Of a stretch of 64,000 nt of DNA, positions 25,194 to 61,900 are shown one piece after another. The notes beneath the pieces were generated by a model. The model saw only the letters and a list, made by a program, of their open reading frames with translations. It was not told the origin of the DNA and made no database searches. Origin of the DNA: a virus; the IMG/VR virus record IMGVR_UViG_3300021598_001271, positions 25,267 to 89,266 of that record; one strand, written 5' to 3'. Numbering within the stretch: the stretch's first letter is position 1; each line of letters starts with the position of its first letter. Both the position numbers and the translations under genes were made by a program.

Positions 25194-25661
25194 TTATTGT
25201 GAAATATTTTTATCTAATAGTTTATATAGTTCAGTATATAACTCAAGGTCCGATTTAGTAAATGGTATTTTACGATTAAATAGGTCTTTTAAGAAAGAAT
25301 CAATAGAGTCTCTAACGTTGTTATTCTTTTGCGTATAATAAACCTCCATAAAGAAACTATTAAAGTATTCGAAATGGTCCCCTTTGGTATTAAACCTAAC
25401 GTTTTCTTTCTTAAAGTTTTCGATTGTTTTGTTCCAACACCATTCAAAATGTTTTTTCTTATCTTCTTCAGATAACGTGACTTTGGTTTCATAATTAAAA
25501 GATTCGTCACCAAGATACGTTTCTTTCATTAAAGTGAATAACGATACGCAAAAATCGAAAAATAATTCACCTTTTTCAGGTATCATATTATTCATATTAA
25601 ACCAAATCTCAACGTCTTCACTATCCATAGGTTTGGATATCCAATTAAAAAAATTCTCCAT
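25194..25661 (-). CDS. Hypothetical protein
   Basis: 155-aa ORF. Confidence 0.8.
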   Translation of the reverse strand: MENFFNWISKPMDSEDVEIWFNMNNMIPEKGELFFDFCVSLFTLMKETYLGDESFNYETKVTLSEEDKKKHFEWCWNKTIENFKKENVRFNTKGDHFEYFNSFFMEVYYTQKNNNVRDSIDSFLKDLFNRKIPFTKSDLELYTELYKLLDKNISQ

Positions 25662-42480: not shown

Positions 42481-43812
42481 TTAAGGTGTATAAATTTGTA
42501 TTTGATTTCTAACAACTCTGTCTGATATTATTTGACAACAGTTACAAGAATTACTAATGATGTTTAAATATACAGTTACGTTAGCCTCTCCTTTAGTTAT
42601 ACAAGGAAGGACTGATTGACCATTAGTTTCTGTGTTAATACCAATTTGAATGGTTCCTGTTAAAGTATCTCCGTTATTAAATGTAAAAGGTCCTGACTTA
42701 TACATAGCATTACCTGTTTGATTTATGTATATTGGATTACAAGTATCTGATGACCCATTACCTAAAGACAATGGAGTCATAGTATTAATTGTTTGAGGGG
42801 AACCATTTATTAAGAATGAATGGTTATTAACATCCCAAGCAACTGAGCCAGGTCCACTACCAATAACAGAATATTCTAACATAAATTCCGCAGTAACATT
42901 AATTCCCAAAGGTAATGAAAACGGATTAGACAAATCATATTGGAATGAATAATACTTGTAGTTACCACTAGTACCGTCATAAGTAAAGTTTGTTGCCGTA
43001 GCCGCCAACGTGTACGTATTAACATTGGTACCTCCAACAGTTATACTTTGGTTAATTATATAATTATTCGCATCTTTATAATATACATTATATGTATTAG
43101 GTGCTAATCCCGTAAACCAACCAATTGGGTTATTAAAATTAACTCCATCTAAAGAGAATGAATAAGGCGCAACTCCAAGAATAACATTAGCACCAATAGT
43201 ACCGTTATTTTGATAACAATCCGAAGGTGTTGAATTAAGGGTTAATACGGTTTTAGAGGATTCAGGTATAGACGCACAAGTTCCTATTTGGGCAATAATA
43301 TAATATTCCATTCCAAGAGGATTATATGAATACCAATTACTATCAGGGATATTATCAAAATCACCTGACCTAAAATACCCACCATAAGGTAAATAACCCA
43401 ACATTTCCCAATACCCATTAGTATTCCAAGAAACATTTGCGGTATTACCTGTATAATAAGGTTTACCATTTATTGATGTACCTGAATCACAAACATCAAT
43501 TAATGTGGTTACATTATTCTTTGTATCTAAAAGAGTAATACAAAGACAAGTTAATGTTGGTGGAGTAGGTTCAACTTCAAAATTCTCATATGTCATACAA
43601 GATTGATTGTAAAGTGTAATACCTGTTGTAGTGTTTGGCACCGCAACTTGCACACCACTTATATTCGTTAAACTAGCCAATGTTATTCCCGTGGCAGGTA
43701 ATAAAGAAGGATATAATTGGGCAATATTACCACTACCGATTATATCGTAATATATAGTGTATGGACCTGTAGAAGTTCCTCCTGTTATTTTTATAGTATA
43801 ATAATTATCCAT
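42481..43812 (-). CDS. Putative virion protein with SprB-like repeat
   Basis: C..NNGTI....LGVAPYSFSLDG...FTGLAPNTYNVYYKDAN. Confidence 0.65.
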   Translation of the reverse strand: MDNYYTIKITGGTSTGPYTIYYDIIGSGNIAQLYPSLLPATGITLASLTNISGVQVAVPNTTTGITLYNQSCMTYENFEVEPTPPTLTCLCITLLDTKNNVTTLIDVCDSGTSINGKPYYTGNTANVSWNTNGYWEMLGYLPYGGYFRSGDFDNIPDSNWYSYNPLGMEYYIIAQIGTCASIPESSKTVLTLNSTPSDCYQNNGTIGANVILGVAPYSFSLDGVNFNNPIGWFTGLAPNTYNVYYKDANNYIINQSITVGGTNVNTYTLAATATNFTYDGTSGNYKYYSFQYDLSNPFSLPLGINVTAEFMLEYSVIGSGPGSVAWDVNNHSFLINGSPQTINTMTPLSLGNGSSDTCNPIYINQTGNAMYKSGPFTFNNGDTLTGTIQIGINTETNGQSVLPCITKGEANVTVYLNIISNSCNCCQIISDRVVRNQIQIYTP

Positions 43813-45148
43813 TACAACCTGAAATTATTTCAATAGAATTTATAGTATTAATATTACCGCTAGTTATTGTTAAAGTATATGTAATATCATTAGGGGCGAT
43901 ATTACTATATACAATATTATTGTAAATACTGTTATTAATAGTAAGTTCTCCTGTACTATAGGTACTAATACCACATCCACCCGTAGGTGTTTGAGCATCT
44001 ACATATACATCTATAACATCTCCTATTGTTATCGTAAAATTACCTCCGTTAGTTGGTCCGCCACAAGGAGTTCCACTATTAAATTGGTAAATAGTTACCC
44101 CATTCAATTTAATCCATCCCGCAGTTTTAGCACATTGACAATTAGGACATTCTTTAAAATGTGACCAAGTAATGTTTTGAGTCTGTGGTAACGGAGTTGC
44201 GGTTGGTGTTGCGGTTGGAGGTGGTGGGGGTACTGGTAATATTGGAGTTGGTTGAGGTACTGGTGTAGGGGTAGGTGTCGGTGTTGGAGTTGCAGTAGGT
44301 GTGTTGTATTCAATAACTGAACCATCAAAACTGCAATCAACAGACGATGTTAATTCACAAGTTGTTGATGCGGTAAAATCCCCCCATAAATCTTTAACAT
44401 TAACAGTATAAGTCCCTGAAGGTTGGTTAAATATAGTATTACCCGTTATACTTGAATTATTGGGTAATGTCCACACAACAGTGTATGGAGTGGTTCCACC
44501 TGTAACATAAACAGATAGTATACCGTCATATCCGTTTTCACTTGGCTCGTTAATAATATTACATTGTACACCTAAAGGAAGTAATGTTATTGGTCCACAT
44601 TCATTTTCACTTTGTCCAGGTATTGGTACATTACTAGTTGTTGTAGTAGTTGTTGGGGGACAAGGTTGACATTCACCGTATTGACAACTATTACTAGGTT
44701 GAGTGTTAACTAAATAGTTTCCTCCTGCATTTAACGTCAAATAAGGTTGTGAATTAAATTCAACTGCCTTATAACAAAAAAGATAAGGTTGTACAATAAT
44801 TAAAGTACCAATAACAAATTCATCTTGATTGATGTAAGTATTCGATAATTTATATAGTTTATTATCACAACAACCTCTAACATATTGACTTTTTTTACAA
44901 GGAGATGTGACCGCAGGACCTAAAGTAGTTCCATCAAAATATCTTACAATAACACCATCAGATACATATGCTGGGGATACAGGTATCGTACCATTAATGT
45001 CGTAAAAGGCTGACCAACTTATTGTCGACGCACTACTTGTTTGGAATGAAGGGTCACAATAGTATCCAATGACTGGGTTAATCCCAAATCTCCAACAAGC
45101 ATCCGAATCAGTGGCACCGATAGCTAAATATTGTAACGTTAACGCCAT
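43805..45148 (-). CDS. Putative virion protein: Cys modules, SprB-like repeat, Pro/Thr linker
   Basis: DGILSVYVTGGTTPYTVVW...GTYTVNVKD; [12 protein letters not shown] tract. Confidence 0.7.
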   Translation of the reverse strand: MALTLQYLAIGATDSDACWRFGINPVIGYYCDPSFQTSSASTISWSAFYDINGTIPVSPAYVSDGVIVRYFDGTTLGPAVTSPCKKSQYVRGCCDNKLYKLSNTYINQDEFVIGTLIIVQPYLFCYKAVEFNSQPYLTLNAGGNYLVNTQPSNSCQYGECQPCPPTTTTTTSNVPIPGQSENECGPITLLPLGVQCNIINEPSENGYDGILSVYVTGGTTPYTVVWTLPNNSSITGNTIFNQPSGTYTVNVKDLWGDFTASTTCELTSSVDCSFDGSVIEYNTPTATPTPTPTPTPVPQPTPILPVPPPPPTATPTATPLPQTQNITWSHFKECPNCQCAKTAGWIKLNGVTIYQFNSGTPCGGPTNGGNFTITIGDVIDVYVDAQTPTGGCGISTYSTGELTINNSIYNNIVYSNIAPNDITYTLTITSGNINTINSIEIISGCNG

Positions 45149-45381: not shown

Positions 45382-48300
45382 TTAACAAGGCACTACATCA
45401 ATAATAACTCCTGAGTTAGAAATTTGAATAGCGTAAGCCGACCCAACTCCATTTAATTTTATTGCCACCCATTTATTACCTCCTGCGGTTGGTAAACTAG
45501 GATATGAGTCATATACAATATCTCCAACAGTGATAGAATTTATTGTAGACCTTTGGATAAGATAACCTCTAACCGCATTATAAGTTAAACAAGCAGATGT
45601 ACTAGTAAATGCGTCGGGTACTGTTCTTCCTATGTAAGTGAAAAATCCTACTGTAGGGGTTGGCGATGGTGGTGTAGGTATTGATGAACAACAAATAGCA
45701 ACAACTTTATTAGCGGTTCTTAACGCCACATACATTCTATTTGTTGGTGGGTGATATTGTATTGTGAAAGGTTGTGACGATAAAGGTATTTTATTTTCAA
45801 CAATTCCTGTTGATGGGTTCATAACCGCAATTGTATTATCACCACTATTAACAATATATAACCTTCCATTAGTTGTATTATATTCAATAGCGGTCGGATT
45901 TGAAAGTAATGCTGAAGTATATACGGCACCTACAGTACCTCCAGTTGGGTTAATGTTTATAATTGAAATTGCATTAGCTTGGTGTGGTATAAATATTCTA
46001 TTATTTGTAGTATCGTGTCCTAGTTTTCTTATGGTTCCTAAAACAGGATAAGACAATGGTATAGTACCTATAATACTATTTGTTAAAGGATTTATAATTG
46101 TTACCGTATTCGTAGTAATATTAGTTAGGAATAATCTATTATTGTATGAACTATGTAAAAATCCTCCTCCACATTTACCAGGTATACCTGTCATAACACC
46201 AGATACTGTCAATGAAGGTGAGAATACTCTAATAATTTCTCCTGTAGTTGTTCCACTATTATTAGTAATATAAACATAATCATTTATAGGATTATAAACC
46301 ATTCTTCCACCCGTATTGGACGCTGGTCCAAGATTAGTTGTTTGAAACGCAGTTGATGAAATACTAAGTGGGAGTTTAACAATTATTTTATTATTATTAT
46401 TATCATAAACCATATCAGTACCAGGGGCAATAGGATTATATGGTGTTGGTGGTATTGAATTTGTTGATGTATTAATCTGATATACACCACCAGGAATTAT
46501 AGTTGTTCCAGAATAATTTAATACTCGTACTGTATTAGTATCGTCTAATAATAAATCTATAGGACTAAAAGCCACTGATGAAAATTCACTAATAACCACA
46601 TCGGAACAAGTGGTTGGCGTTGGGGTTGGTGTTGGTGTACTTGTTTGAGTTGGAGTTGGCGTACTTGTATTAGTTGGAGTTGGTGTCGGAGTTGATGTTG
46701 ATGTATTTGTTGGCGTAGGTGTAGGTGTTGATGTATTTGTTGGCGTAGGCGTAGCAGTCGGACTATCCGTAGGTGTTGGAGGAATAGTTGCGGTAGGCGT
46801 TGGGCTTGCCGTAGGTACTGGTATTGTTGGGTACGGAGTTGCAGTAGGTGTTTGAGTAGGTGTTGGTGTTGGAGTACCTGTAGGTGTTGGTGTTGGTGTT
46901 GGTGATGGTGGAGGAAGTGGTGGTGTTGGTTGAGGACATCCGTCACAATCTAATCCGACTAATCCTGTGATTGAATTCAATATAGAATTTGAAGATAAGT
47001 TAGATAATGAATCGTAAGTTACACACACAACAGTTTGGTTAATAACTGCCGTCATAGTATAACCAGTTTCTATGGTAATATTATTATAAATTAAATCACC
47101 ATTTATATAATACTCATCACCTGTTTCACAATTTATTAATTTTTTAGTTTGAGAACATTCAAAAGTTTCGTCAAATATTTCATAAGTTAAACTACCAAGG
47201 AAACATAAATCTCTATTAACTGTAGGTGTTGGTGTTGGAGTCGCCGTAGGTGTTGGTGTAGGGACCGTAGTTGCGGATAAACTAATTGATGTACTTGAAC
47301 AGTTTATTGTTGGTGTTGGTGTAGGAGTTCCAGTTTGTGTTGGAGTTGGAGTTGGTGTAGCCGTAGGTGTTGGAGTTGGGGTAGGTGAATAACATTCAAA
47401 TACCGCATCAAAATCAACAATATCACAAGGATTTGTAGTAGTTGTGGTAGTTGAGCAACCACCAGCAAATAATTCATATATATCAGGACAAGAACTGTAA
47501 CAAGGTTCTTTACCGTAAAATATACAAGGACCTCCTAAAGAATCAGAAAGACACCATTTATTACCATCATAGAAAATGTAACCAAAATCACCACCAATTG
47601 CAAAAGTAGTATAATAATAAGGATTACCACCATAATAACCTTGTAATGTGAATGTACCATCATATGAACTTCCATTACTTAAACAATAATTAACCAAACA
47701 AGAATTGGTCGGTGTAGGTGTTGGAGTTTGGGTTGGAGTAGAAGTCGGTGTAGGTGTTGGCGTAGGTGTTGGCGTAGAAGTTGGGGTTTCTGTTGGAGTT
47801 GGCGTAGGTGTTTCTGTTGGCGTTTCTGTTGGAGTCTCTGTTGGTGTTTCTGTTGGAGTCGGTGTAGGTGTTTCGGTTGGCGTTGGTGTCGGACAAGGAT
47901 TATCTATTAAACATAAAGAACAATCAACATCTCCGTAATAAGTCGCTGAAATACCAACGTAAGTTGGGTAAGAAGGATTATAAGAGTGAACAAGGGCACA
48001 ACCAACAAATCCAATAGAGTCGACATAATAAAATTGACCAGGATTTATAGAACCTGGTAATCCAGATATATTATATGTTGAACCGTCACAACAACTAACA
48101 AACGAGTAAATAGGTTGTGTTGGTGTTGGGGTTGGAGTAGGACATATTTGTGAACAATCAACTCCTGTGTATATCGCAATACCATTATAAGGTAATGATG
48201 TATCTACACAAACATTTAATAACAGAGTACTTCCTGATTGATAATCTCCACAACAATCATAATATTCCCAAAATGGAGCATCAGTTACCCCCGAAGTACA

Positions 48301-51300
48301 AGTAATTGGTGTAGGTGTTGGTGTAGGTGTTGGTGTAGGTGTTGGACAAGGAAATACAATTAGACAAGTTGCACAATCAGCATATCCTAAGCCAGCAGAT
48401 ACTGTTGGGTACGATGGATTGTAAGGTAAAGGAATACTATTACAAGTGTAACAAGAAGAACCTATATTGTAAGTTGTGCCAATAGATAATGTAGTAAATC
48501 CAATAATATTAAAATCTACCTCATTCAAAGGTGGTGGTTCGGTACTACAACAGTCAATAAATACATATCTAAAAGCAGCCTCTTCTGTTGGCGTTGGCGT
48601 ATTTGTAGGAGTTTCTGTAGGTGTACTAGTCGGAGTAGAGGTCGGTCCTTCAGTTGGTGTTGGAGTACTTGTTGGTGTATTAGTCGGAGTACTAGTTGGC
48701 GTAGAGGTTGGTCCTTCAGTTGGTGTTGGTGTAGGTGTTTCGGTTGGCGTTGGTGTCGGACAAGGTCCGTTATCAATAACGGTTAAACCTGGATTGTTAT
48801 CATAACAAGCACCAAACGCTAATAAACAAGCACATATTTGAATATCATTACCGTCCGCAATTTCAAATCCAAGAATCTCATTTCCTTCACAATCAACATA
48901 ATCAAAAAACTGAGGAGTACCAGTTGTATTTATAATTGTATAAGAAATACAATCGGTACAAAAAGGATTTGAACATTCAGTTTGAAATACTAAAGCTAAG
49001 CTGGCCGTTTGACGAGGTGCTGATTCAGGTTCAATACAGGTCCAACAACTACCATCACATTCAGACGAATATGTTTGACCAACAACGCCATCAAAATCAT
49101 TTTGAACTATATACTGACCACAACAACTTATAAATTTATTAGATGAAATAGGTGGTTGGGTAGATGTTGGTGTAGGGGTTGGTTCAATAGGTATTGGTGT
49201 TGGAGTAGGTGTAGGTGTTGGAGTAGGTGTTGGTGTCGATGTCGGACTTGTGGTAGGTGTCGGTGTTGGTACAATTGGGGTTGGCGTAGGTGTTGGAGCC
49301 ACCGTAGTTGACGTAGGCGTAGGAGTTGGTTCTCCAGGTGTAGGTGTAGGGGTTGGTGTAGGGTCAACATCACATACACAATTAGTACAGTTTTTACCTG
49401 TTGGGTGACAGATATTACAAGGGTCTGAAACTAACAATTCTGAACAAAAAGTAACTATTTGGCCAGGAAGTACCGTAATTGTCGTATTATCTTGCAACTC
49501 ACAATCAAGATAAGTTACTAAACATTCATCAAGACCTTCACTATTATCCGCTTCCCAACATATAACCACAGGTGCTGGTGTTGGAGTTGGGGTAGGTGTT
49601 GGTTGTTGTCCACAAACACAATTTTCGTCAATACCCGCATCTAAAATATTGATTGAAAATGGTTTATTAATATCATAACAAATGAATACACCTTGGCTAC
49701 CACTACCTGTTTCTAAATTTCCATTACAATCAAAGTAACTGTAATTATCGGCATCGATAATTAAACCCCTGTGACAATCACAAGGCAAATCTGTAGGTGT
49801 AGGAGTTGGTACCACCGTAGTTGACGTAGGCGTAGGAGTTGGGACAACTGTGGTTGAAGTAGGTGTAGGGGTTGGCTCAATAGGGATGGTTGTTGATGTT
49901 GGAGTTGGTGTTGGTTCAGGTGTCTGAGTTGGTGTTGGTGTCGGGGTTGGTGTTGGTGTACACGGTCCGTTATCAATTATTGAGATACCAGGTGTTGCAC
50001 TAACAGTACCTTCGATAGCACAAAAACTTATTACTTCATTTTCAATTGGGAAATCCTGAGGATTACCGTCACAATCTGTGTAAAATACCGTTCCAGGTCC
50101 ACCACCAGAACTTATAGCGGTGTAAGAAACACAAGGTGGAGTAGTAGGTGTAGGTGTTGGTGTTGGTATTTGTGATGCACAACAATTATTAGTACTTGTT
50201 ATAGTTGAATTTACTAATATTATCGGTAAGTCGTTTTCATAGTAATATATTTGAGGTGTAGTGCCAATTGGATTACAAAAAGCATTTAAATAATTACCTG
50301 CAGTATCATATGTATTTGTTTCAGTATTACCTATATCACCACAAATTTTGTTACTAACATATATAGTATTATCCAAATATATGGTATTACCTATAGCATT
50401 ATCTAAATCTATTTGAGAAATGTTAACATCCCAATAATAGCAAGGACAAGGTGTTGGCGTCGGTGTTGTTTGAACACACTGTGGACAGTTTTGAGGTGAT
50501 GGGTCTCCTGCAGGGTCACCAGGCCCTTCACATACTTCATATCCTTGGGTATAATATGTGTAAGAAGTATTTGGGTATTGAGTATCTAAATCAATGGCAG
50601 GTGAGGGAGGAATTCCATCATAACCTTTGAAACAAAAAACAGGACTTCCATTATTAACTTGATATACCTTATCAATTAAAAAAGTTAAGGTAGATGATGA
50701 GTAATAAACATATGGTGGACAACAAGAAATACCATATTGAGATGGTAGTGGTAAACAATCTAAACAATCTTGTATTGGTTGATAATAAGAACCAACTAAT
50801 CCGCCATCATTATAAAAAATTGTAGGGTCTTGGGTAATATATTGATAACAATAGTATTGAGTTGTTCTAAAATAATCACCAACAGTTCCTGAAACAGGTG
50901 ATAAAAATAAGAAACCTGTATTACATTGTTCAACAATAAAAGAATCAGTACAAGGCAATTCAATAATACAATTTGTACATCCGCCAGGAGTGTAAGTTTG
51001 TATGTCTAAAAATTTGGCACTAAAATTAAATGTTGTAGCAGAAACAACAGTATAACACCTACCATTATATTCGAAAAAATCACCAGTAACTGGTGAATTG
51101 GGTAAATTAACGGTATATGTTCCAACACCACAAGAACAACCGCTAATTGTATAAGTTAACATAGGAGTACAAGCACTATATCCATCATTACAAGTTAGTC
51201 CTGCTAATTGAGATTGGGGAACCCAAGCTCCAAATGCCAAAGGATATGTACCAGTACCACCTGTACTATAAAATTCAAAGCATTGGTTATTCCATACAAT

Positions 51301-51588
51301 TAAGTCACCACTACTATAATTATTATTTGTAGGGATAACAACATCATATACAGTAAACGGTGAATCACATTGTTTAATTTGAACATTTCTACATCCAGGC
51401 GCACCACAAGCATTAACCTCAAATTCATTAGTAATTGTAACATCAATACCTGTACCACCTGATAATTGTATTTCATAACAAATACCAGTGTTTTCATCAA
51501 GCACAACATCATTAGGGTCATAAAGACCTAGTGTTTCAATTTCTAAAGTTTCACTAACTCCACACCTATTTGCGAAATAAAATTCCAT
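45382..51588 (-). CDS. Giant mucin-like protein: Cys-rich modules, (PT)n linkers, C-terminal YncE/YVTN-like beta-propeller
   Basis: 2068 aa; more than ten Pro-Thr tracts; [12 protein letters not shown] and [22 protein letters not shown] blades. Confidence 0.8.
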
Positions 51589-51619: not shown

Positions 51620-52600
51620 TCAGTTCTTTGATTTTTGAATCAAAGACTTCATAATATCAACATATTTTATTGTTGAACTATTTTTATCAATATATTCAAA
51701 ATGGTTTATGTTCTCTTTTAATTTATCTAAAGGATTTATAATAATGTAGTCACCTTTATAAAATTTGGTATCTTTTAGGTTATCTGTGACACCCGCCATA
51801 TGTAATATTGGTTTTTTATTATAAATATCAATATTGTCAGTTGCCCAAGAAAAATCCAATTCTTTTATTATTTTAGTATCTTTTCCAAAACACCATAAGT
51901 TCCAAAGAACACTCCACATTTCCGCAGTCCAAAATTGTATCTCACCAGGACTTATTGGAAATCTTCTTTGGTAATCTATCATTTGGTCATACAATGTGGT
52001 TGAATCATTATATATCTTATACCATTGTTCTGATGTAGTATTTTTAATAATATATTGACCTCCTCCTGAATTATCTTGGTTACTCGCGACACAATCAATA
52101 TCAATCCCAACAACATCTACCATTTCTTGTAGTAATTGGTTTTCTTTAGAAATTGGATGGGCGTTCTCATATCTGCGACAACAATCAATAATATATGAGT
52201 ACGCAATATATCCCTTGGTGTCAGCTAAATAACAATAATCATCATCAAGTAATAAATCATAATTAGGTAGTTCTCTAAAGACAATATCCGCATCGTGAAG
52301 GAAAAAAACTTTACCATTTTCAGGAAATTGTTCTAACCATTTGTGAACTAAATAAGGTTTAATACTTGGTATATAATGTTTTTTATCTCTTTCATCATTA
52401 TAAAAATGGACATTATACCCTTTTTTAGTTAAACTTAAAGCGCCTTCAGATGGTTCAGTAGCTCCGTTAACCAAACCAAATATTATATGGATTTGAGATG
52501 GTTTAATACCCATTTCAGTAAAATTATGACCATATATCTCACATTGCCAATGAAAATAAGGTACGTCAGGTTGTGCGGTAACGTATAATAACTCAGACAT
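51620..52600 (-). CDS. Glycosyltransferase resembling plant HPAT/SGT1 (GT95/GT96)
   Basis: YFHWQ, YIPSIKPYLVHKWL, FLHDADIVF (DxD), GGQYII, WTAEMWS. Confidence 0.62.
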   Translation of the reverse strand: MSELLYVTAQPDVPYFHWQCEIYGHNFTEMGIKPSQIHIIFGLVNGATEPSEGALSLTKKGYNVHFYNDERDKKHYIPSIKPYLVHKWLEQFPENGKVFFLHDADIVFRELPNYDLLLDDDYCYLADTKGYIAYSYIIDCCRRYENAHPISKENQLLQEMVDVVGIDIDCVASNQDNSGGGQYIIKNTTSEQWYKIYNDSTTLYDQMIDYQRRFPISPGEIQFWTAEMWSVLWNLWCFGKDTKIIKELDFSWATDNIDIYNKKPILHMAGVTDNLKDTKFYKGDYIIINPLDKLKENINHFEYIDKNSSTIKYVDIMKSLIQKSKN

Positions 52601-52675
52601 ATAAATTTTTTAAAATAATAATAAGATTTTATTGTTTTTTATAAATAGGAAGATTATGGATATATTTATAATAGT

Positions 52676-52943: not shown

Positions 52944-55900
52944 ATGAATAACGGTCATTATGATTTTATCGAAATCGGTACCTCAGATTTTGACACATTA
53001 ATTGAATTGTCCGATGATAACACTGTTGGTCTAAGTATTGAACCAATAAGATATTATTTGGATAGATTACCAAATAAAAAAAATGTAAAAAAATTACAGG
53101 TTGCCATCTCTGATAACGATGGTCATCTTGATATCTACTATATCCCCGATGATAAAATACAAGAACACTCTTTACCTTGGTGGGTTAGAGGTAGTAATAG
53201 TATTAACAACCCTCATCCTTTTACAATTAAAGAAATCGGTGAAGAATTATATAACTCTATAGTAACAATAGACAGAGTACCCACAATTTCTTGGGATACT
53301 TTAGTTAAACAAGAAAACATTCAATCTATTGATTATTTAAAAATTGATACTGAAGGTTTTGACCACGTCATTTTAAAAGATTATTTAAAAACTTGTGAAA
53401 CTAATCCAAAATTATTAGCAAATAAAATAAAATTTGAGTGTCATAAGGAAGTTTCAAATTTAGAGGAGATTGAAAAATTAATTCCTAAGTTTAAAAATTA
53501 CTTTATTGAAAGACACGAAAGTGATATTACTCTAACAAAAGTTAAAATACCTAGAATAATTCATCAGACTTTTAAGAGTGAAAACTTACCTGAAGAATTA
53601 AAAGGATGGGTTGAGGAATTAAAGAGTCGTAACCCTGAATTTGAATATAGATTCTATAATGATGAAGATTGTATTAATTTTATCAAAGATAATTACGATG
53701 AGGAAACTCTTAACGAATATCTTTCAATTAACCCTTCTTACGGTTCTTGTAGAGCAGACTACTTTAGATACCTATTAATGTATAAAGTTGGTGGTGTTTA
53801 TTTAGACATTAAAAGTTTTGCAAACACACCTTTAAAATATATTATTAAACCTACCGATGAATATATCTTAACTCATTGGGAAGGTAGGGATTGGTCAGAG
53901 GAGTTAAACTACTATCACGGAGAATTCCAAAACTGGCAAATTATAAGTGCACCTGGTCATCCATTTTTAAAAAAGACTATTGAGATAGTTAAGGAAAACA
54001 TCAAAAACTATAAAGGTGAGATGGGTAAACAATCTGTATTACGTTTAACAGGACCTATTGTTTATAGTAAAGCAATCCTATCATTATTAGATAAACATAA
54101 AATAGACTCACCTGACTCTCCTGTAAGAGAATTTAAAATCTCAGAAGAGTTAGGTATGACTTATAGAATATCCCTTAAACATCAACATTTAATATACGGC
54201 CATAATGCAAGTGAAGATGAACCAATTATCCTGAAAAAAACAAAGGATAAAAAAGCATATGTATTATATGCAACAGATTCATATTTGGATGTCGTAACTT
54301 CTTGTGCAAAATCAATACGAGAATTTAGTGACTTACCAATTTATGTGTATATGTTAAATTCTGTTTCAGTTGTAGATGTTCCTAATACAAAAACAATACA
54401 ATGGTATTGTAAAATAAATTCAGATAACAATCTATATAAAAAATCGGGAGATAACTTTTTTATAGATAGAGGTAATCGAACAATTTATGACATATTAATT
54501 CAACGTCCATTAATCACTAAAAATGTGTTAGAGAATTATGTTGAGACGGTTGCTTATGTTGACAGTGATTCAATTGCAACCCCATATGTTGATAGAATTT
54601 TCGATATGTACGACAATACCTCAACATTCCCTTACTTTGTTGAGGGGATATACGACTACTTACATATAGATGGTAGAGGAGGTGCTGATAGTAGAGATGA
54701 TTTAAGCACAACTTTAGAACATCCTGCTTGTGAACTATTTAATGTTGACCAATATGTTAGACAAGAATATCGTCAAACAGGTTATTATGTTGCAGGACAA
54801 AATACCATAGATTTCTTAGACGAATGGTATTGGATGTGTATTAACCCAAAAGTTTTAAACGACTTTAAGTTATATGCTCCTTATCACGAAGAAACCATTG
54901 TTAACATATTATTGTGGAAGAATAAAATTTTTAAAGGATTACCTTATTGTTATATTAATGGTAGTTCTGATATGGTTGATAGAGTTTATAATGAATTTAA
55001 TTTTAATGGTGTTTCTAATCATATTTCAAATTGGGTTAGAACTCCTTCAAATTTAAATGATTTATTATTTTATCACGGAGAGAAAAGAATAAACGTTATG
55101 AATGAAATGATAGACAAAATCAAATCATATAATAACGTACCTAAAAAATTAAAAGTTTTATTCTTAGCACCACACCTTTCAACAGGTGGTATGCCATCAT
55201 TCTTACTGAAAAGAATCGAGTCATTACAAAAATATTCAGACCTACTTGAATTGTTTGTAGTTGAGTATTCAAACCATTCTGACTATTACGTAGTTCAAAA
55301 AAATATGATTAAGGAAATTATTCCTAGTTCTAACTTTTGGACCCTTGGTAGTGATAAAACAGAATTACTAAAGATTATTAAGAATAACAATATTGATATC
55401 ATTCATATCGATGACGTTATTGAGGAATTAGACATTTATAACCCAATACCTAAAGAACTACTTGAAGGTCTATATTCAAAAGATAGAACTTGGAGAATTG
55501 TTGAGACTTGTCATAACGTATCATTTAGACCTGATTTGTCTAAAATGTTACATCCTGAGGCTTACGCTTACTGTACACCATATCACGAACAAGTAACATT
55601 TAAAGAGTTACCTTCATACGGTGAAACAATGTTATTTCCAATAGAGTACAATCCTATCACCAATGAAGAAAAACTAAACGCAAAACAACAATTAGGATTT
55701 GACTTAAATAAAGTACACGTAGTTAATGTTGGCCTTTGGACTAGAGGTAAAAACCAAGGAGAAGGTGTTGAATTAGCAAAATCATTAATTAATTCAAACC
55801 CTGAAATACATTTTCATTTTGTTGGTAATCAAGCACCTAATTTTGAAGAGTATTGGTCCCCTATTATGAAATCAATTCCTAAAAACGTAACAGTTTGGGG

Positions 55901-57308
55901 TGAGAGGTCGGACGCTAAAACATTTATGATGGCTGCAGATGTTTTTATGTTTAATTCAACTTGGGAATGTAATCCTTTAGTATTAAGGGAAGCGGCTTCA
56001 TATGGATTAAAAATATTATCAAGAAATTTACCTCAATATATGGATATGTTTACACCATATATAACTGAGATTGATGAAAATATAAAATCAACTAAAGATA
56101 AGTTACTTAATCTAATTAAATCAAACATTAGTTATAAAATTCCACAAGGCGAATTTGAGTCTTTTGGTGAACAATATTTTAACTTCTATAATAAAGTAAA
56201 AACTTTAGAAATTAAAAAACAAAAAGTATCAAACATTAATACTCAAATTATTCAACATTATGTGAATCAACCTTATTTTGAAATTAAAGGTAGTTCAGAT
56301 AAAATTTTTAACGTTAAATTCTTTGATGAGATAAATTATTGTCATTATGAAAATAATTTACCCGCAAATCATTGGGTCAAATTAAATAGACAATATTTTA
56401 CTAAATGGAGAACTGAGGTTTGGGAAGATAACGAATTAATTTATAATAACACTTTAGACTTTACAGGTAAGAGAGTTTACATCGCATTAGACAGTAAATC
56501 TTTAGGTGATTCAATATCTTGGATGCCGTACATTTTAGAGTTTAAAAATAAGCACAATTGTCATTTAATTGTTTCAACATTTTGGAATAAATTATTTAAA
56601 AAATCTTACCCTGAACTTGAATTTGTAGAACCAGGTGTTACGGTAAATAATTTAAATGGTATGTATAAATTAGGATGGTTTTATAATTCAGATTACGAAC
56701 CTGAAATACCTAACACAATACCATTACAAAAAACCGCAACAAATATTTTAGGATTAGAGTTTAAGGAAATTTTACCTAAAATTGATTTTACACCAAAATC
56801 CAATCCTTTTAAAGAAAAATATGTTACAATTGCAAATGAATCTACATCAGGATTAAAGTATTGGAATAATCCAAACGGATGGCAAGAATTAGTTAATTAC
56901 TTAGTAGATAAGGGATACAGAGTAATCAATGTATCTAAAAATGGTGACACATTAAAAAATGTTACAAAATTAAAAGACACTTCAATCGAAAATACAATGA
57001 ATGTGATTCATCATAGTGAATTTTTCATAGGTTTATCAAGTGGGTTGTCTTGGTTATCTTGGGGTATTGGTAAACACGTAGTTATGATTTCTAACTTTAC
57101 TGAACCTGACCACGAATTTACAATAAACTGCACAAGAATAACAAATCCATCAGTATGTAATGGTTGTTGGAACAACCCTAAATTCAAATTTGATAAGGGA
57201 GATTGGTATTGGTGTCCTGAACATAAGAACACCCCAAGACAATTTGAATGTCACAAATCAATTACATCTGAAATGGTTATAAATTCAATACAACACTTAA
57301 TAAAATGA
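52944..57308 (+). CDS. Five-domain glyco-enzyme: FkbM methyltransferase, GT32, GT-A, GT4, TibC/Aah-like heptosyltransferase
   Basis: FIEIG...LKIDTEG; KIPRIIHQT...RADYFRY...GGVYLD; YVDSD; LAPHLSTGG...KNQ...ECNPLVLREA; LGDSISW...FIGLSSGLSWL...CNGCW...WCP...FEC. Confidence 0.85.
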   Translation: MNNGHYDFIEIGTSDFDTLIELSDDNTVGLSIEPIRYYLDRLPNKKNVKKLQVAISDNDGHLDIYYIPDDKIQEHSLPWWVRGSNSINNPHPFTIKEIGEELYNSIVTIDRVPTISWDTLVKQENIQSIDYLKIDTEGFDHVILKDYLKTCETNPKLLANKIKFECHKEVSNLEEIEKLIPKFKNYFIERHESDITLTKVKIPRIIHQTFKSENLPEELKGWVEELKSRNPEFEYRFYNDEDCINFIKDNYDEETLNEYLSINPSYGSCRADYFRYLLMYKVGGVYLDIKSFANTPLKYIIKPTDEYILTHWEGRDWSEELNYYHGEFQNWQIISAPGHPFLKKTIEIVKENIKNYKGEMGKQSVLRLTGPIVYSKAILSLLDKHKIDSPDSPVREFKISEELGMTYRISLKHQHLIYGHNASEDEPIILKKTKDKKAYVLYATDSYLDVVTSCAKSIREFSDLPIYVYMLNSVSVVDVPNTKTIQWYCKINSDNNLYKKSGDNFFIDRGNRTIYDILIQRPLITKNVLENYVETVAYVDSDSIATPYVDRIFDMYDNTSTFPYFVEGIYDYLHIDGRGGADSRDDLSTTLEHPACELFNVDQYVRQEYRQTGYYVAGQNTIDFLDEWYWMCINPKVLNDFKLYAPYHEETIVNILLWKNKIFKGLPYCYINGSSDMVDRVYNEFNFNGVSNHISNWVRTPSNLNDLLFYHGEKRINVMNEMIDKIKSYNNVPKKLKVLFLAPHLSTGGMPSFLLKRIESLQKYSDLLELFVVEYSNHSDYYVVQKNMIKEIIPSSNFWTLGSDKTELLKIIKNNNIDIIHIDDVIEELDIYNPIPKELLEGLYSKDRTWRIVETCHNVSFRPDLSKMLHPEAYAYCTPYHEQVTFKELPSYGETMLFPIEYNPITNEEKLNAKQQLGFDLNKVHVVNVGLWTRGKNQGEGVELAKSLINSNPEIHFHFVGNQAPNFEEYWSPIMKSIPKNVTVWGERSDAKTFMMAADVFMFNSTWECNPLVLREAASYGLKILSRNLPQYMDMFTPYITEIDENIKSTKDKLLNLIKSNISYKIPQGEFESFGEQYFNFYNKVKTLEIKKQKVSNINTQIIQHYVNQPYFEIKGSSDKIFNVKFFDEINYCHYENNLPANHWVKLNRQYFTKWRTEVWEDNELIYNNTLDFTGKRVYIALDSKSLGDSISWMPYILEFKNKHNCHLIVSTFWNKLFKKSYPELEFVEPGVTVNNLNGMYKLGWFYNSDYEPEIPNTIPLQKTATNILGLEFKEILPKIDFTPKSNPFKEKYVTIANESTSGLKYWNNPNGWQELVNYLVDKGYRVINVSKNGDTLKNVTKLKDTSIENTMNVIHHSEFFIGLSSGLSWLSWGIGKHVVMISNFTEPDHEFTINCTRITNPSVCNGCWNNPKFKFDKGDWYWCPEHKNTPRQFECHKSITSEMVINSIQHLIK

Positions 57309-57982
57309 ACTTAGAAAATTTTAACTGGGGATGGATGAATAATTCCGAAGAAGGATTGGTTCACAAACATCACATAACGTTTGAAACGTTTGAACATAAA
57401 ATGTATGAAAAGGTATTTGAGGTAGAAGAAGGTGACATCGTATTAGATATCGGTGCCAGTGTAGGTTCATTTACTTATTCAATACTTGATAAAAACCCTA
57501 AACACGTATATTGTGTAGAACCTAGTGAATTGGAGTTTCCAACGTTAATTTCAAACACAATAGGTTATCCTGTCACCCCAATTTTAAAAGGTATTTCAAA
57601 TACTAACACATATGTTGATGTAGAACATCTATATGATAATAAATCAAAGATGGAAGGTATGACTTTTAAACGGTTAGTGGAATTATATAACTTAGAAAAA
57701 ATAGATTTCCTTAAAACGGATTGTGAGGGCGGAGAATATGATATTTTCAATGATGAAAACATTGATTATATTAAAAATAATATAAAAAAAATAGTAGGTG
57801 AATGGCATTTAGGAAGTCCTGAACTTAAAGAAAAGTTTAGAAATTTTAGAGACAAATATCTCTCACAATTCAATAATATTGAGGTCTATTCTGTAGATGA
57901 TTTTAACATTAAATGGGATTTATGGAATGACCACTTTATTGAATACTATGGTGAAGTATTAATTTATATAGATAATCGTTAA
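57305..57982 (+). CDS. FkbM-family methyltransferase
   Basis: VLDIGASVG, CVEP, IDFLKTDCEGGE. Confidence 0.9.
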   Translation: MNLENFNWGWMNNSEEGLVHKHHITFETFEHKMYEKVFEVEEGDIVLDIGASVGSFTYSILDKNPKHVYCVEPSELEFPTLISNTIGYPVTPILKGISNTNTYVDVEHLYDNKSKMEGMTFKRLVELYNLEKIDFLKTDCEGGEYDIFNDENIDYIKNNIKKIVGEWHLGSPELKEKFRNFRDKYLSQFNNIEVYSVDDFNIKWDLWNDHFIEYYGEVLIYIDNR

Positions 57983-57984
57983 TT

Positions 57985-58356
57985 ATGAAAATAGAAGTAT
58001 CAATTGGTGAGATAGTAGATAAACTATCAATACTCAGAATTAAAAAGAATAATATCTCAGATTCTGAAAAATTAAAAAATGTCACGACTGAATATGATTA
58101 TTTATATTCAATTGTTTTTGACGAATTAAAAATAGAAGAAAGTGATTTTTATAACTTAGTTTTAATTAATGAAAAACTTTGGGATATTGAAGATAAATTA
58201 AGGGATAAAGAAAGAGATAAGTCTTTTGATAATGATTTCATAGAATTAGCTCGTTCTGTATACTTTACCAATGATAAAAGAGCCGAAATAAAAAAAGATA
58301 TTAACTTAAAATACGGTTCTTTATTTGTTGAAGAAAAATCATACAAAGAATATTAA
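57985..58356 (+). CDS. DUF6165-like protein
   Basis: VSIGEIVDKLSIL.IK...INEKLWDIED...FIELARSVY..ND.R..IK...EEKSY. Confidence 0.8.
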   Translation: MKIEVSIGEIVDKLSILRIKKNNISDSEKLKNVTTEYDYLYSIVFDELKIEESDFYNLVLINEKLWDIEDKLRDKERDKSFDNDFIELARSVYFTNDKRAEIKKDINLKYGSLFVEEKSYKEY

Positions 58357-58357
58357 T

Positions 58358-58942
58358 ATGAATTTTACAAAACCTAATAACGACCCTCAAAACTATTATT
58401 GGTGGAGTGAGGGATTTTCTCAAGATGAATTAAGAAAGATTTATTCAGATTTAGAATCAATTCCTTTTCAACAAGCAACAACAATTGGTGCAAGTGAGGA
58501 TGATACAATTAAAGAAATACGAAGTTCATCAATTAAATGGATTCCAAAAACACAAGAGTGGAATTGGTTGTATGAAAAATTAATGAATATGGCGGTAGAA
58601 GCTAATTCTATATGGAATTTTGATTTAATATCCGCAGATGAATTAATTCAATACACTGAATATTATGACGTAGAAGGTGGTCACTATGATTGGCACCAAG
58701 ATATAGGTCCTGGTGACGCCTCTAAAAGAAAAGTTTCAATAACGGTACAATTATCAGAATCAGATGAATATGATGGCGGTGATTTAGAAATTTGGCAAGG
58801 AGGTAAATCATATATAACTGCTCAAAGAGGAGCGGGAGTTGTATTTGTGTTCCCGAGTTATATGATGCACAGAGTAACAAAAGTTACTAAAGGTACTCGA
58901 AGGAGTTTTGTCTTATGGGTAGGTGGTAGTCACTACAAATAA
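58358..58942 (+). CDS. 2OG-Fe(II) oxygenase (PKHD/prolyl-4-hydroxylase-like)
   Basis: HYDWHQD (HxD), YDGGDL, FPS..MHRV, GTRRS; start ATG 58358. Confidence 0.9.
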   Translation: MNFTKPNNDPQNYYWWSEGFSQDELRKIYSDLESIPFQQATTIGASEDDTIKEIRSSSIKWIPKTQEWNWLYEKLMNMAVEANSIWNFDLISADELIQYTEYYDVEGGHYDWHQDIGPGDASKRKVSITVQLSESDEYDGGDLEIWQGGKSYITAQRGAGVVFVFPSYMMHRVTKVTKGTRRSFVLWVGGSHYK

Positions 58943-58979: not shown

Positions 58980-61900
58980 TTATGAGGTACAACCTCTTGT
59001 TACTTTAAATGTGTAACTAAATTTAACCGTACCTCCAATACTTAAATTAGTCGTATTAAATCCTAATACAAATAATGTATCACAAGGTTCTAATGTATCT
59101 CCAATAGTGTATGATGTGTTGAAACAAACGACACCAGTTGCATTACTAAAAGCTTCTGAAGTATCCGCTAAATGTGTCACAGTTACAGGGTCAATACTTG
59201 CTGCGTCCGCACAACTAAATCGACCTATAGCACAACCGAATAGATTACTCGAATCGGCCCCTGTACATTGAGCAATACCACAAACTTCTATTACATCACC
59301 ATTATAAAGGTACCAAGGACAAGGTATTCCTACGTTAACGTATTGAGCATCAATTGGGTCTGTTTTTTCTCTAGCAAGTGCCGTTGGGATGTTTAAAGTA
59401 CAAGAGTCCCATCCGCAAGTTCTATCCCCAACCCAATAAACAACACTATTTTGATTAGGTTCTTCTTCAAAAGCTCCTGAGTGTGACGCAATAACCCATT
59501 TTTGACCAAGAGTAACATTAGCCTGACCTCCACCTGCGTCGGTAACATTAACACAAGTTCCTACAAAGTTAACAGATGTCGCAGTACCAACTACGGTAGT
59601 ACCTTCATCTTTAATCGAGATGGAGCCACCTCCACCACCGCCTGATGTACCAGATGTTCCTGATGTACCTGTAGGTCCTGGAGGTCCTGGAGGTCCTACT
59701 ATGGTTGCTCCTGATGTACCACTTGTACCTGATGTACCGTTAGAACCTGGTGTTCCATTAGTACCTGGTGTACCGTTAACCCCCGATGTTCCTGAAGTTC
59801 CTCTTGTACCTGAAGTTCCGCTTGTTCCCGACGTACCCGAAGTTCCTGGAGTACCAGGACCACCATTAACACCTGAAGTACCTGATGTTCCACTTGTACC
59901 TGATGTACCTGGAGTACCAGGACCACCATTAACACCCGAAGTTCCCGAAGTTCCTCTTGTGCCTGATGTACCCGAAGTTCCACTTGTACCTGATGTACCT
60001 GGAGTACCAGGTCCACCATTAACACCTGATGTACCACTTGTACCTGAAGTTCCACTTGTTCCTGGAGTTCCTGGACTACCATTAGCACCTGATGTACCAC
60101 TTGTACCTGAAGTACCATTAACTCCCGATGTTCCTGAAGTTCCACTTGTTCCTGGAGTTCCTGGACTACCATTAGCACCTGATGTACCACTTGTACCTGA
60201 CGTACCGTTTACACCTGAAGTACCGCTTGTACCTGATGTTCCTGGAGTACCAGGAGTACCATTAATACCTGACGTACCTGATGTTCCTCTTGTACCCGAA
60301 GTTCCTGAAGTTCCTGAAGTTCCGCTAGTACCATTAACTCCTGAAGTTCCACTTGTCCCTGATGTACCGTTTACACCCGATGTTCCTGAAGTTCCACTTG
60401 TACCATTAACTCCTGAAGTACCGCTAGTACCTGACGTACCTGGAGTACCAGGAGTTCCATTAATACCTGAAGTTCCTGAAGTACCTCTTGTTCCTGAAGT
60501 TCCGCTAGTACCTGATGTACCGTTGATACCTGAAGTTCCGCTAGTTCCTGAAGTTCCGCTTGTTCCTGAAGCTCCGTCAACACCACTAGTACCTGAAGTT
60601 CCACTTGTTCCATTCACTCCTGAAGTACCACTAGTACCTGAAGTTCCGTTGATACCTGATGTTCCTGAAGTTCCACTTGTACCATTAACTCCTGAAGTAC
60701 CGCTAGTACCTGATGTACCATTTACTCCTGAAGTTCCTGAAGTACCTCTTGTTCCTGATGTACCACTTGTACCACTTGTTCCACTTGTTCCATTAACACC
60801 TGATGTTCCAGACGTGCCCGTAGTTCCTGATGTTCCACTTGTTCCATTGACTCCTGAAGTACCACTAGTTCCTGATGTACCATTAACCCCTGAAGTTCCT
60901 GATGTTCCATTAACTCCTGATGTTCCACTAGTTCCTGTTGTACCGCTAGTACCCGAAGTTCCGTTGATACCTGATGTTCCTGAGGTTCCGCTAGTACCAT
61001 TCACTCCACTTGTACCTGAAGTACCTGTTGTACCACTAGTTCCTGAAGTACCATTTACTCCTGAAGTTCCTGAAGTTCCATTTACTCCTGATGTTCCTGA
61101 AGTACCTCTTGTTCCTGATGTACCACTTGTACCTGATGTACCACTTGTTCCTGAAGTTCCGTTAACGCCTGATGTTCCTGATGTACCGTTTACCCCCGAT
61201 GTTCCACTTGTACCAGAAGTACCCGAAGCTCCGTCAACACCACTAGTACCTGAAGTTCCACTTGTTCCATTTACACCGCTAGTACCTGAAGTACCTGTTG
61301 TTCCTGATGTACCTGAAGTTCCATTTATACCACTAGTACCTGATGTTCCTGTAGTACCTGAAGTTCCACTTGTTCCGTTAACACCTGAAGTTCCTGATGT
61401 TCCTCTTGTTCCTGATGTTCCGCTCGTTCCTGAAGTACCACTAGTTCCGTTAACACCTGAAGTTCCTGAGGTACCTGTTGTTCCTGAGGTACCTGAAGTT
61501 CCGTTGATACCTGAAGTTCCACTTGTACCTGTTGTACCACTAGTTCCTGACGTACCGTTAACTCCTGATGTGCCTGAAGTTCCAGTGGTTCCTGATGTTC
61601 CACTTGTTCCGTTTATACCACTTGTACCTGAAGTACCCGTAGTTCCGCTTGTTCCTGAAGTTCCGTTGATACCTGATGTGCCTGATGTTCCACTTGTTCC
61701 ATTTACACCGCTAGTACCTGACGTACCTGTAGTTCCAGATGTACCTGAAGTTCCATTAACACCTGATGTTCCTGACGTACCTCTTGTACCTGAGGTACCA
61801 CTAGTTCCTGAAGTTCCTGTCGTACCACTAGTTCCTGAAGTTCCATTAATTCCAGACGTACCTGACGTCCCTGTAGTTCCTGAAGTTCCACTTGTTCCAT

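Follow-up and report, generated by a model that had tools for sequence, protein, structure and literature searches.

Protein glycosylation by phages is itself a known kind of system. In mycobacteriophages, phage-encoded glycosyltransferases are reported to glycosylate the C-termini of capsid and tail-tube subunits (Freeman et al. 2023, as summarised in PMC12619734); according to the same source, no other phages are so far reported to have glycosylated virions, and the glycans are said to shield against anti-phage responses. In plants, HPAT1-3 (family GT95) and the related SGT1 (family GT96) are peptide O-glycosyltransferases that start the glycans on repetitive Pro/Ser-rich cell-wall proteins, and the plant HPAT is held in the Golgi by a type II membrane anchor (PMC8012813); of the two families, GT95 is predicted to be GT-A-like and GT96 to have a novel fold (PMC8476585). 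The present work concerns a protein of 326 amino acids (aa). It is encoded in a stretch of 64,000 nucleotides (nt) of virus DNA, hereafter the window, which covers positions 25,267 to 89,266 of the IMG/VR record IMGVR_UViG_3300021598_001271. We think it rather likely that this protein is a metal-dependent GT-A transferase (DxD plus His) that puts the first sugar on consecutive Thr residues of phage proteins encoded by neighbouring genes.

The 326-aa open reading frame (ORF) contains all the motifs that a preliminary description of this DNA had quoted from it, i.e., YFHWQ (residues 15-19), YIPSIKPYLVHKWL (76-89), HDADIVF (102-108, encoded by nt 52277-52297), GGGQYII (179-185) and FWTAEMW (223-229). 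These motifs are conserved and not chance resemblances: in an alignment of 56 family sequences Y76, D103, D105, G180, W224, W229, H267, G270, F280 and K282 are invariant, while P11, Y15, W18, Q19, Q222 and M228 are conserved in at least 90%, and the DxD of the enzyme is D103-A-D105. The AlphaFold2 model built on this alignment is a single domain with a predicted local distance difference test score (pLDDT) of 97.2 and a predicted template modelling score (pTM) of 0.94, to which Foldseek and VIA-align assign a GT-A fold, with retaining enzymes as the nearest relatives. The closest solved structures are those of GT8 (glycogenin, LgtC, GlyE and the Skp1 alpha-galactosyltransferase AgtA) and the catalytic domain of UGGT (GT24), with which the enzyme shares only 5-10% identity; as in GT8-type enzymes, its GT-A fold comes with a DxD and a C-terminal His (H267). 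The sequence holds no membrane segment (the Kyte-Doolittle score of 19-residue segments peaks at 0.92), the first beta-strand beginning as early as residue 5. Taken with the model, these features make it well supported that the protein is a soluble glycosyltransferase.

Direct searches with the 326-aa protein gave no Pfam match at E<=1, no NCBIfam family and, with phmmer, no sequence relative in the PDB, and the homologues phiFL1A gp51 and iLp84_9 likewise had no Pfam match. A TALE-repeat match of the family profile against PDB sequences (E 0.043) was rejected as spurious. The protein does match the profile of PHROG 4417, a family of unknown function, with E 1.9e-68 and 231.7 bits, residues 6-319 aligning to positions 3-290 of the 293 in the profile. 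A word-indexed search recovered 1144 family proteins at E<=0.001, and of the best 120 none has a Pfam domain and all are named just "hypothetical protein"; an exhaustive search extended the family to 816 clusters at 50% identity. Among cultured phages, tblastn of the enzyme matched 77 records (identity 23-36% among the 40 matches listed), which by organism name are Lactobacillus (23), Enterococcus (21), Staphylococcus (11), Lactococcus (8), "Bacteriophage" (6), Clostridium (3), Lacticaseibacillus (2), Chryseobacterium (1), Arcanobacterium (1) and Levilactobacillus (1); no Mycobacterium phage is among the 77. In 88 longer relatives the enzyme domain is fused to other glycosyltransferase domains, such as Glyco_transf_7C (6), GlcNAc (3), GT2 (3), GT6 (2), GT25 (2) and O-FucT (1). 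Two copies may be mentioned for their setting. A Virgibacillus prophage (L129, 8001-9062) encodes a transferase (phrog_4417, E 2.1e-118) with a C-terminal Arc-like repressor domain at 299-351 (phrog_3673), and a copy 67% identical to that of the window (L085, 1927-2889) lies on a 5.3-kb contig that was binned into a Woesearchaeota metagenome-assembled genome (MAG) and is most likely a mis-binned phage contig.

The preliminary description had called the protein a plant-like peptidyl O-glycosyltransferase of the HPAT/SGT1 type, on the strength of a parallel with plant motifs; the comparison made here runs via bacterial members of the Pfam HPAT family (PF23452). The enzyme does not reach the cut-off of that family (23.9 bits; no match at E<=1), its relatives give one match in 56 at E 0.046 and none in 88 at E<=0.01, and a search of the record containing the window and of four Firmicutes phage records with PF23452 and PF23741 gave no match. 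Regarding CAZy families, no GT95 or GT96 entry is among the matches listed in the fold searches of the enzyme model, and the enzyme has no match to the GT8 family PF01501 at E<=1. As leads only, and not as evidence, the labels of the ESM Atlas assign the family set HPAT to 17 of 30 named-cluster matches and DUF7164 to 6, with HPAT on 10% of the members of the best cluster.

A specific remote relationship to HPAT emerged from bacterial genomes. PF23452 was exceeded by an ORF in 3 of 50 genomes holding distant members of the enzyme family (34.4, 31.0 and 26.5 bits), and a sample of 301 genomes from one phylum gave three positives, one of them counted before and two new, at 101.3 and 88.5 bits; with five bacterial ORFs over the cut-off, the occurrence of HPAT-family proteins is not limited to plants and algae. 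When the phage-family profile was aligned with bacterial HPAT-like ORFs, hhalign gave a probability of 93.7% over 251 columns (E 1.9e-7) and one of 91.9% over 230 columns (E 6.8e-7), pairwise E-values obtained with shallow bacterial alignments of 3 and 5 sequences; the motifs PY..WQ, Y.P..(K/R)P, D.D..F, W..DM, I.H and K..Y fall in register. As controls, the phage-family profile against four bacterial GT8 proteins gave 42.7%, and the HPAT-like profile against GT8 gave 1.6%. Hidden Markov models (HMMs) behave in the same manner: the phage-family HMM scores 26.1, 21.3, 17.1, 7.4 and 5.4 bits on the five HPAT-like ORFs as against 3.1, 2.4, 2.0 and -0.8 on GT8, and an HMM made from the five ORFs gives the window enzyme 22.3 bits. 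The two ORFs with the highest scores on Pfam HPAT have the lowest on the phage profile, and the link to HPAT therefore runs via intermediates. The preliminary description had taken best hits in GT8 with no GT95 or GT96 signal as an argument against an HPAT-type enzyme, and here the best solved-structure matches are GT8, and the profile signal favours the HPAT-like ORFs over GT8. Of the HPAT-type assignment, then, the glycosyltransferase fold, the DxD and the specific remote homology stand, but the enzyme lies below the Pfam threshold and, unlike the plant enzyme, is soluble, with no type II anchor. Our reading of these comparisons is that the family is a sister of HPAT within a GT8-like superfamily and not a member of HPAT.

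The bacterial HPAT-like genes have neighbours of their own, and their adjoining a PF13640 oxygenase or a UDP-galactopyranose mutase is new here. On a contig from a myxobacterial MAG (L165, 2-3567, minus strand), three genes follow one another, for a 2-oxoglutarate-Fe(II) (2OG-Fe(II)) oxygenase of PF13640, for a fusion of an HPAT-family protein with a PqqD (peptide-recognition) domain and for a phage-type family member, a trio that looks like a bacterial operon for peptide hydroxylation and glycosylation. The ORFs with the top Pfam HPAT scores (101 and 88.5 bits; L174, 1426-3583, and L175, 1477-3616) are each followed by a similar ORF, and that of L174 encodes a UDP-galactopyranose mutase (238 bits on PF03275). 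Plant HPAT transfers L-arabinofuranose to hydroxyproline (Hyp), and by analogy the mutase hints at a furanose donor.

To follow the candidate acceptors, the window, in which 69 genes were called, was compared with several sets of loci. The clade set consists of 80 IMG/VR relatives whose enzymes are 64-73% identical to that of the window (enzyme-anchored loci). A second set is anchored on a conserved neighbouring gene for a 734-aa protein and comprises 72 relatives with at least 8 kb of sequence upstream of it, the presence of the enzyme being judged in a 10-kb flank. The distant set holds 80 GTDB loci carrying distant homologues, those of at most 400 aa being termed standalone. The record to which the window belongs is 89,266 bases long and estimated to be 30% complete; related contigs reach about 300 kb, and the source is therefore a jumbo phage. 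No close cultured relative was found: among cultured phages, neither 15 kb of the window (megablast) nor the 734-aa protein (tblastn) had a match.

In the window, the enzyme gene is, as had been described, co-oriented with and directly upstream of a gene for a 2068-aa protein, its stop codon ending 31 nt before the ATG of the latter (Table 1). The 2068-aa protein has 11 tracts of Thr or Pro-Thr (PT) and 33 stretches that match (PT)3+ or (TP)3+, and the next gene encodes a 447-aa protein with a PT tract. Among the 69 genes only these two pass our tract rule, and only these two contain runs of at least four Thr, one T6 run in each. The arrangement recurs in the clade: in 79 of the 80 relatives an ORF that is rich in Cys, Pro and Thr and at least 150 aa long begins within about 70 nt downstream of the enzyme gene on the same strand, the exception being a locus cut about 350 nt after that gene. 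This first ORF is a homologue of the 447-aa protein in 70 cases and of the 2068-aa protein in 6, with 3 unmatched. Thr/PT tracts occur at rank +1 in 59/80 and at rank +2 in 48/73 loci, and runs of at least five Thr lie within 8 kb downstream in 73/80.

Pure Thr runs, and not PT tracts, covary with the enzyme. In the set anchored on the 734-aa gene, 8 of the 72 loci have the enzyme, all 8 with tract-bearing genes, and runs of at least five Thr upstream of the anchor are present in 6/8 loci with the enzyme versus 12/64 without it, counts that ignore shared descent and include several near-duplicate loci. The difference can be followed at one homologous site, G.C-[linker]-C.{2,4}DF, a regular expression of our own which, in the window, fits the 2068-aa protein at its T6 site. 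Of 39 matches in the enzyme-anchored loci, 27 have poly-Thr linkers (17 distinct), 10 have other linkers and 2 have PT repeats; the 46 matches in loci without the enzyme comprise no poly-Thr, 9 others and 37 PT repeats (18 distinct). Where the absence of the enzyme was verified over the whole record (8 matches), the figures are 0 poly-Thr, 3 others and 5 PT repeats, and the 734-aa-anchored loci with the enzyme (6 matches) have 1, 3 and 2, respectively. That PT tracts are kept without the enzyme, and that in its presence poly-Thr takes the place of PT at a homologous linker, is likewise new here.

Thr tracts also stand beside the enzyme in unrelated phages. In the Enterococcus phage phiFL1A a major tail protein with a long Thr/Ser tail at its end comes directly before the homologue gp51, and in the Lactobacillus phage iLp84 a capsid protein ending in a seven-Thr run is followed by a small protein with a long poly-Thr tail and then by the homologue. 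In the GTDB loci a Thr-rich tract is found in the gene directly upstream (rank -1) in 27/75, with secondary peaks at rank -6 (11/54) and rank -5 (6/60) and only 0-2 cases, mostly 0-3%, at the other ranks from -8 to +8; a tract lies within the three upstream genes in 26/41 standalone forms versus 2/39 fused forms. The tract-bearing neighbours sampled include major head proteins (phrog_10, phrog_840), major tail or tail-tube proteins (phrog_88, phrog_6686, phrog_14018) and phrog_749. In Bacillota prophages, where the glycosyltransferase gene adjoins virion genes carrying the candidate acceptor tag, most tracts beside the enzyme are C-terminal poly-Thr tails, several of which are free of proline. 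The arrangement resembles the glycosylation reported for mycobacteriophages, in that family members lie next to genes for capsid and tail-tube proteins whose poly-Thr tails are candidate acceptors. The enzyme family appears to be a different one, no Mycobacterium phage being matched, and the Thr runs of the jumbo phages are internal linkers of large fibre-like proteins and not C-terminal tails.

These data suggest a course of events in which the cytoplasmic GT-A enzyme would draw on a host nucleotide-sugar and, before or during assembly, transfer the first sugar to the hydroxyls of consecutive Thr residues, namely in the T6 runs of the two fibre-like proteins (2068 and 447 aa) encoded downstream. 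The likely acceptor of the phage enzyme is thus predicted to be poly-Thr and not the Hyp or Ser of the plant system. A wider proposal, which we hold to be as open to being wrong as right, is that PHROG 4417 comprises the initiators of a widespread poly-Thr O-glycosylation in phages, acting on capsid and tail-tube tails in phages of Gram-positive bacteria and on fibre-like linkers in aquatic jumbo phages. The family would be the prokaryotic and viral sister of plant HPAT/SGT1, forming one lineage of peptide O-glycosyltransferases with the plant Golgi enzymes and with those bacterial HPAT-like genes that have an oxygenase of the prolyl-hydroxylase type or a UDP-galactopyranose mutase as neighbour.

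A number of results weigh against an enzyme devoted to Thr runs of neighbouring phage proteins. Of the 64 relatives without the enzyme in the 10-kb flank, 61 still have tract-bearing genes, and when whole records were searched with the family profile, 0 of 15 flank-negative records (two of them 96% and 90% complete) had a member, as against 3 of 3 positive controls. The (PT)n linkers therefore do not need the enzyme, and the dependence on it of Thr and PT tracts as one class is ruled out by the same 61 relatives. The Fisher p of 0.002 for runs of at least five Thr overstates the independence of the loci, given their shared descent and near-duplicates, and the linker counts depend on a self-defined expression and ignore shared descent. 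In bIL285 the capsid protein preceding the homologue has no Thr tail, 15 of the 41 standalone homologues in bacterial genomes have no tract in the three upstream genes, and the fused bacterial forms are almost free of tracts, so that the enzyme domain is not restricted to contexts with Thr runs. For the jumbo phage, the downstream Thr/Pro-rich proteins gave no structural-protein match, replication and recombination genes flank the block on its low-coordinate side and the 734-aa neighbour gave no clear fold, and the virion location of the acceptors is therefore an assumption. Finally, no biochemical evidence for any member of the family was found, and none of the papers listed in searches on virion-protein glycosylation or Thr-rich tags in phages describes it. 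Searches on HPAT in bacteriophages and on DUF7164 returned nothing, nor did we find a description of the family, or of poly-Thr tags as phage glycosylation sites, in the literature outside subscription journals and supplements.

The forms of more than 400 aa (39 GTDB loci, L086-L163), which are multi-domain proteins of 450-1377 aa in Chitinophaga, Pedobacter, Mucilaginibacter, Sphingobacterium and actinobacterial MAGs, show Thr-tract neighbours in only 2 of 39, and the family therefore also has a non-phage role, which is probably glycan synthesis. This bears on an alternative that we regard as unlikely, in which the phage enzyme acts not on a phage protein but on a surface glycan of the host, on a lipid-linked sugar or on phage DNA, its place beside fibre genes being inherited gene order only. 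The fused forms, which make up 39 of the 80 homologues in bacterial genomes, fit such a role, as do their partners, which are glycosyltransferase domains of the polysaccharide type, and the large multi-glycosyltransferase cluster that adjoins the enzyme in the window; gene order within a single clade, moreover, is not independent evidence. A non-protein acceptor does not account for the pairing with poly-Thr tails that recurs within the head/tail operons of unrelated small siphophage-type prophages, nor for Thr runs that replace PT linkers at a homologous site only when the enzyme is present, and the enzyme has no membrane segment.

The remote homology to the HPAT family raises another route, modelled on plant extensins, in which a prolyl hydroxylase makes Hyp in the (PT)n linkers and the enzyme glycosylates it as plant HPAT does. 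The window does encode a PF13640-type oxygenase with a weak prolyl 4-hydroxylase match (E 0.0049), and in the myxobacterial contig such an oxygenase, an HPAT-like gene and a phage-type family member stand in a row on one strand. The best solved relatives of the window oxygenase, however, are hydroxylases of the PiuC type, the gene is missing from all 80 enzyme-bearing relatives, (PT)n tracts are equally common in relatives that lack the enzyme and several of the Bacillota prophage tails beside it have no proline, and we consider this route quite improbable. Equally hard to favour is glycosylation of the 2068-aa protein by the TibC/Aah-type domain of a 1454-aa protein encoded in the divergent cluster, with the 326-aa enzyme extending the glycan or acting elsewhere. 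In its support, residues 1136-1451 of the 1454-aa protein match TIGR04414 (autotransporter strand-loop-strand O-heptosyltransferase) with 294 bits against a cut-off of 200, in a family named for transfer onto proteins; yet the cluster is present in 1/80 relatives, as against 79/80 for the pairing of enzyme and fibre-like gene, and a Gly-Thr-Ser collagen-like protein that adjoins the cluster offers it another target.

Transfer to Thr runs thus remains our preferred reading, and it modifies the earlier proposal that the Pro-Thr-rich 2068-aa protein is the substrate: its T6 linker stays a candidate, while its Pro-Thr repeats, which persist without the enzyme, are probably not what defines the substrate. 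The predicted acceptor in the window accordingly shifts from these repeats to two short T6 runs. If the reading is true, the enzyme and its tag would form a signature, extending over 816 clusters at 50% identity, by which virion glycosylation could be predicted from sequence; the prediction would cover phages relevant to therapy and to dairy, namely those of Enterococcus, Staphylococcus and lactic acid bacteria, and a simple soluble enzyme with a short tag would be of use in protein glyco-engineering. In addition, the origin of extensin-type glycosylation in plants is a question on which both the HPAT homology and the HPAT-like genes of bacteria bear.

Table 1. Coordinates of the enzyme gene, the candidate acceptors and neighbouring features in the window.
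Feature	Position	Strand	Remarks
326-aa soluble GT-A glycosyltransferase-like protein (PHROG 4417 family)	51620..52600	(-)	ORF, ATG start
TATAAATA, putative T4-type late promoter	52663..52670	(-)	63 nt upstream of the enzyme start codon
2068-aa Cys/Pro/Thr-rich modular protein, candidate acceptor	45382..51588	(-)	first gene downstream of the enzyme
T6 run of the 2068-aa protein	47434..47451	(-)	aa 1380-1385, in the G.C-linker-C.{2,4}DF linker
447-aa protein with PT tract and T6 run	43805..45148	(-)	second gene downstream of the enzyme
T6 run of the 447-aa protein	44636..44653	(-)	aa 166-171
Divergent accessory cluster	52944..58942	(+)	1454-aa protein, FkbM methyltransferase, DUF6165 protein, 2OG-Fe(II) oxygenase
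1454-aa protein	52944-57308	(+)	FkbM methyltransferase, Gly_transf_sug (DXD; GT32-like), GT4 and GT9-like/TibC/Aah-type domains
2OG-Fe(II) oxygenase, PF13640 type	58325-58942	(+)	

The remaining features of the window concern the surroundings of the enzyme gene. The motif TATAAATA upstream of it may be a T4-type late promoter; it is not enriched in the window, where 14 copies were found and 14.5 were expected. The divergent cluster could serve to extend or methylate the glycan, or could act on another target, and its genes for the 1454-aa protein, the FkbM methyltransferase, the DUF6165 protein and the oxygenase are present in 1, 0, 0 and 0 of the 80 enzyme-bearing relatives, respectively. A search of the 89-kb record, 30% complete, for the families GLF, Epimerase and NTP_transferase gave no match. 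The collagen-like ORF beside the cluster (58980-64000, minus strand) runs off the window and is at least 1672 aa long; its product is a possible target of the TibC-like domain. The GC content at this ORF is 0.47, against about 0.30 elsewhere in the window.

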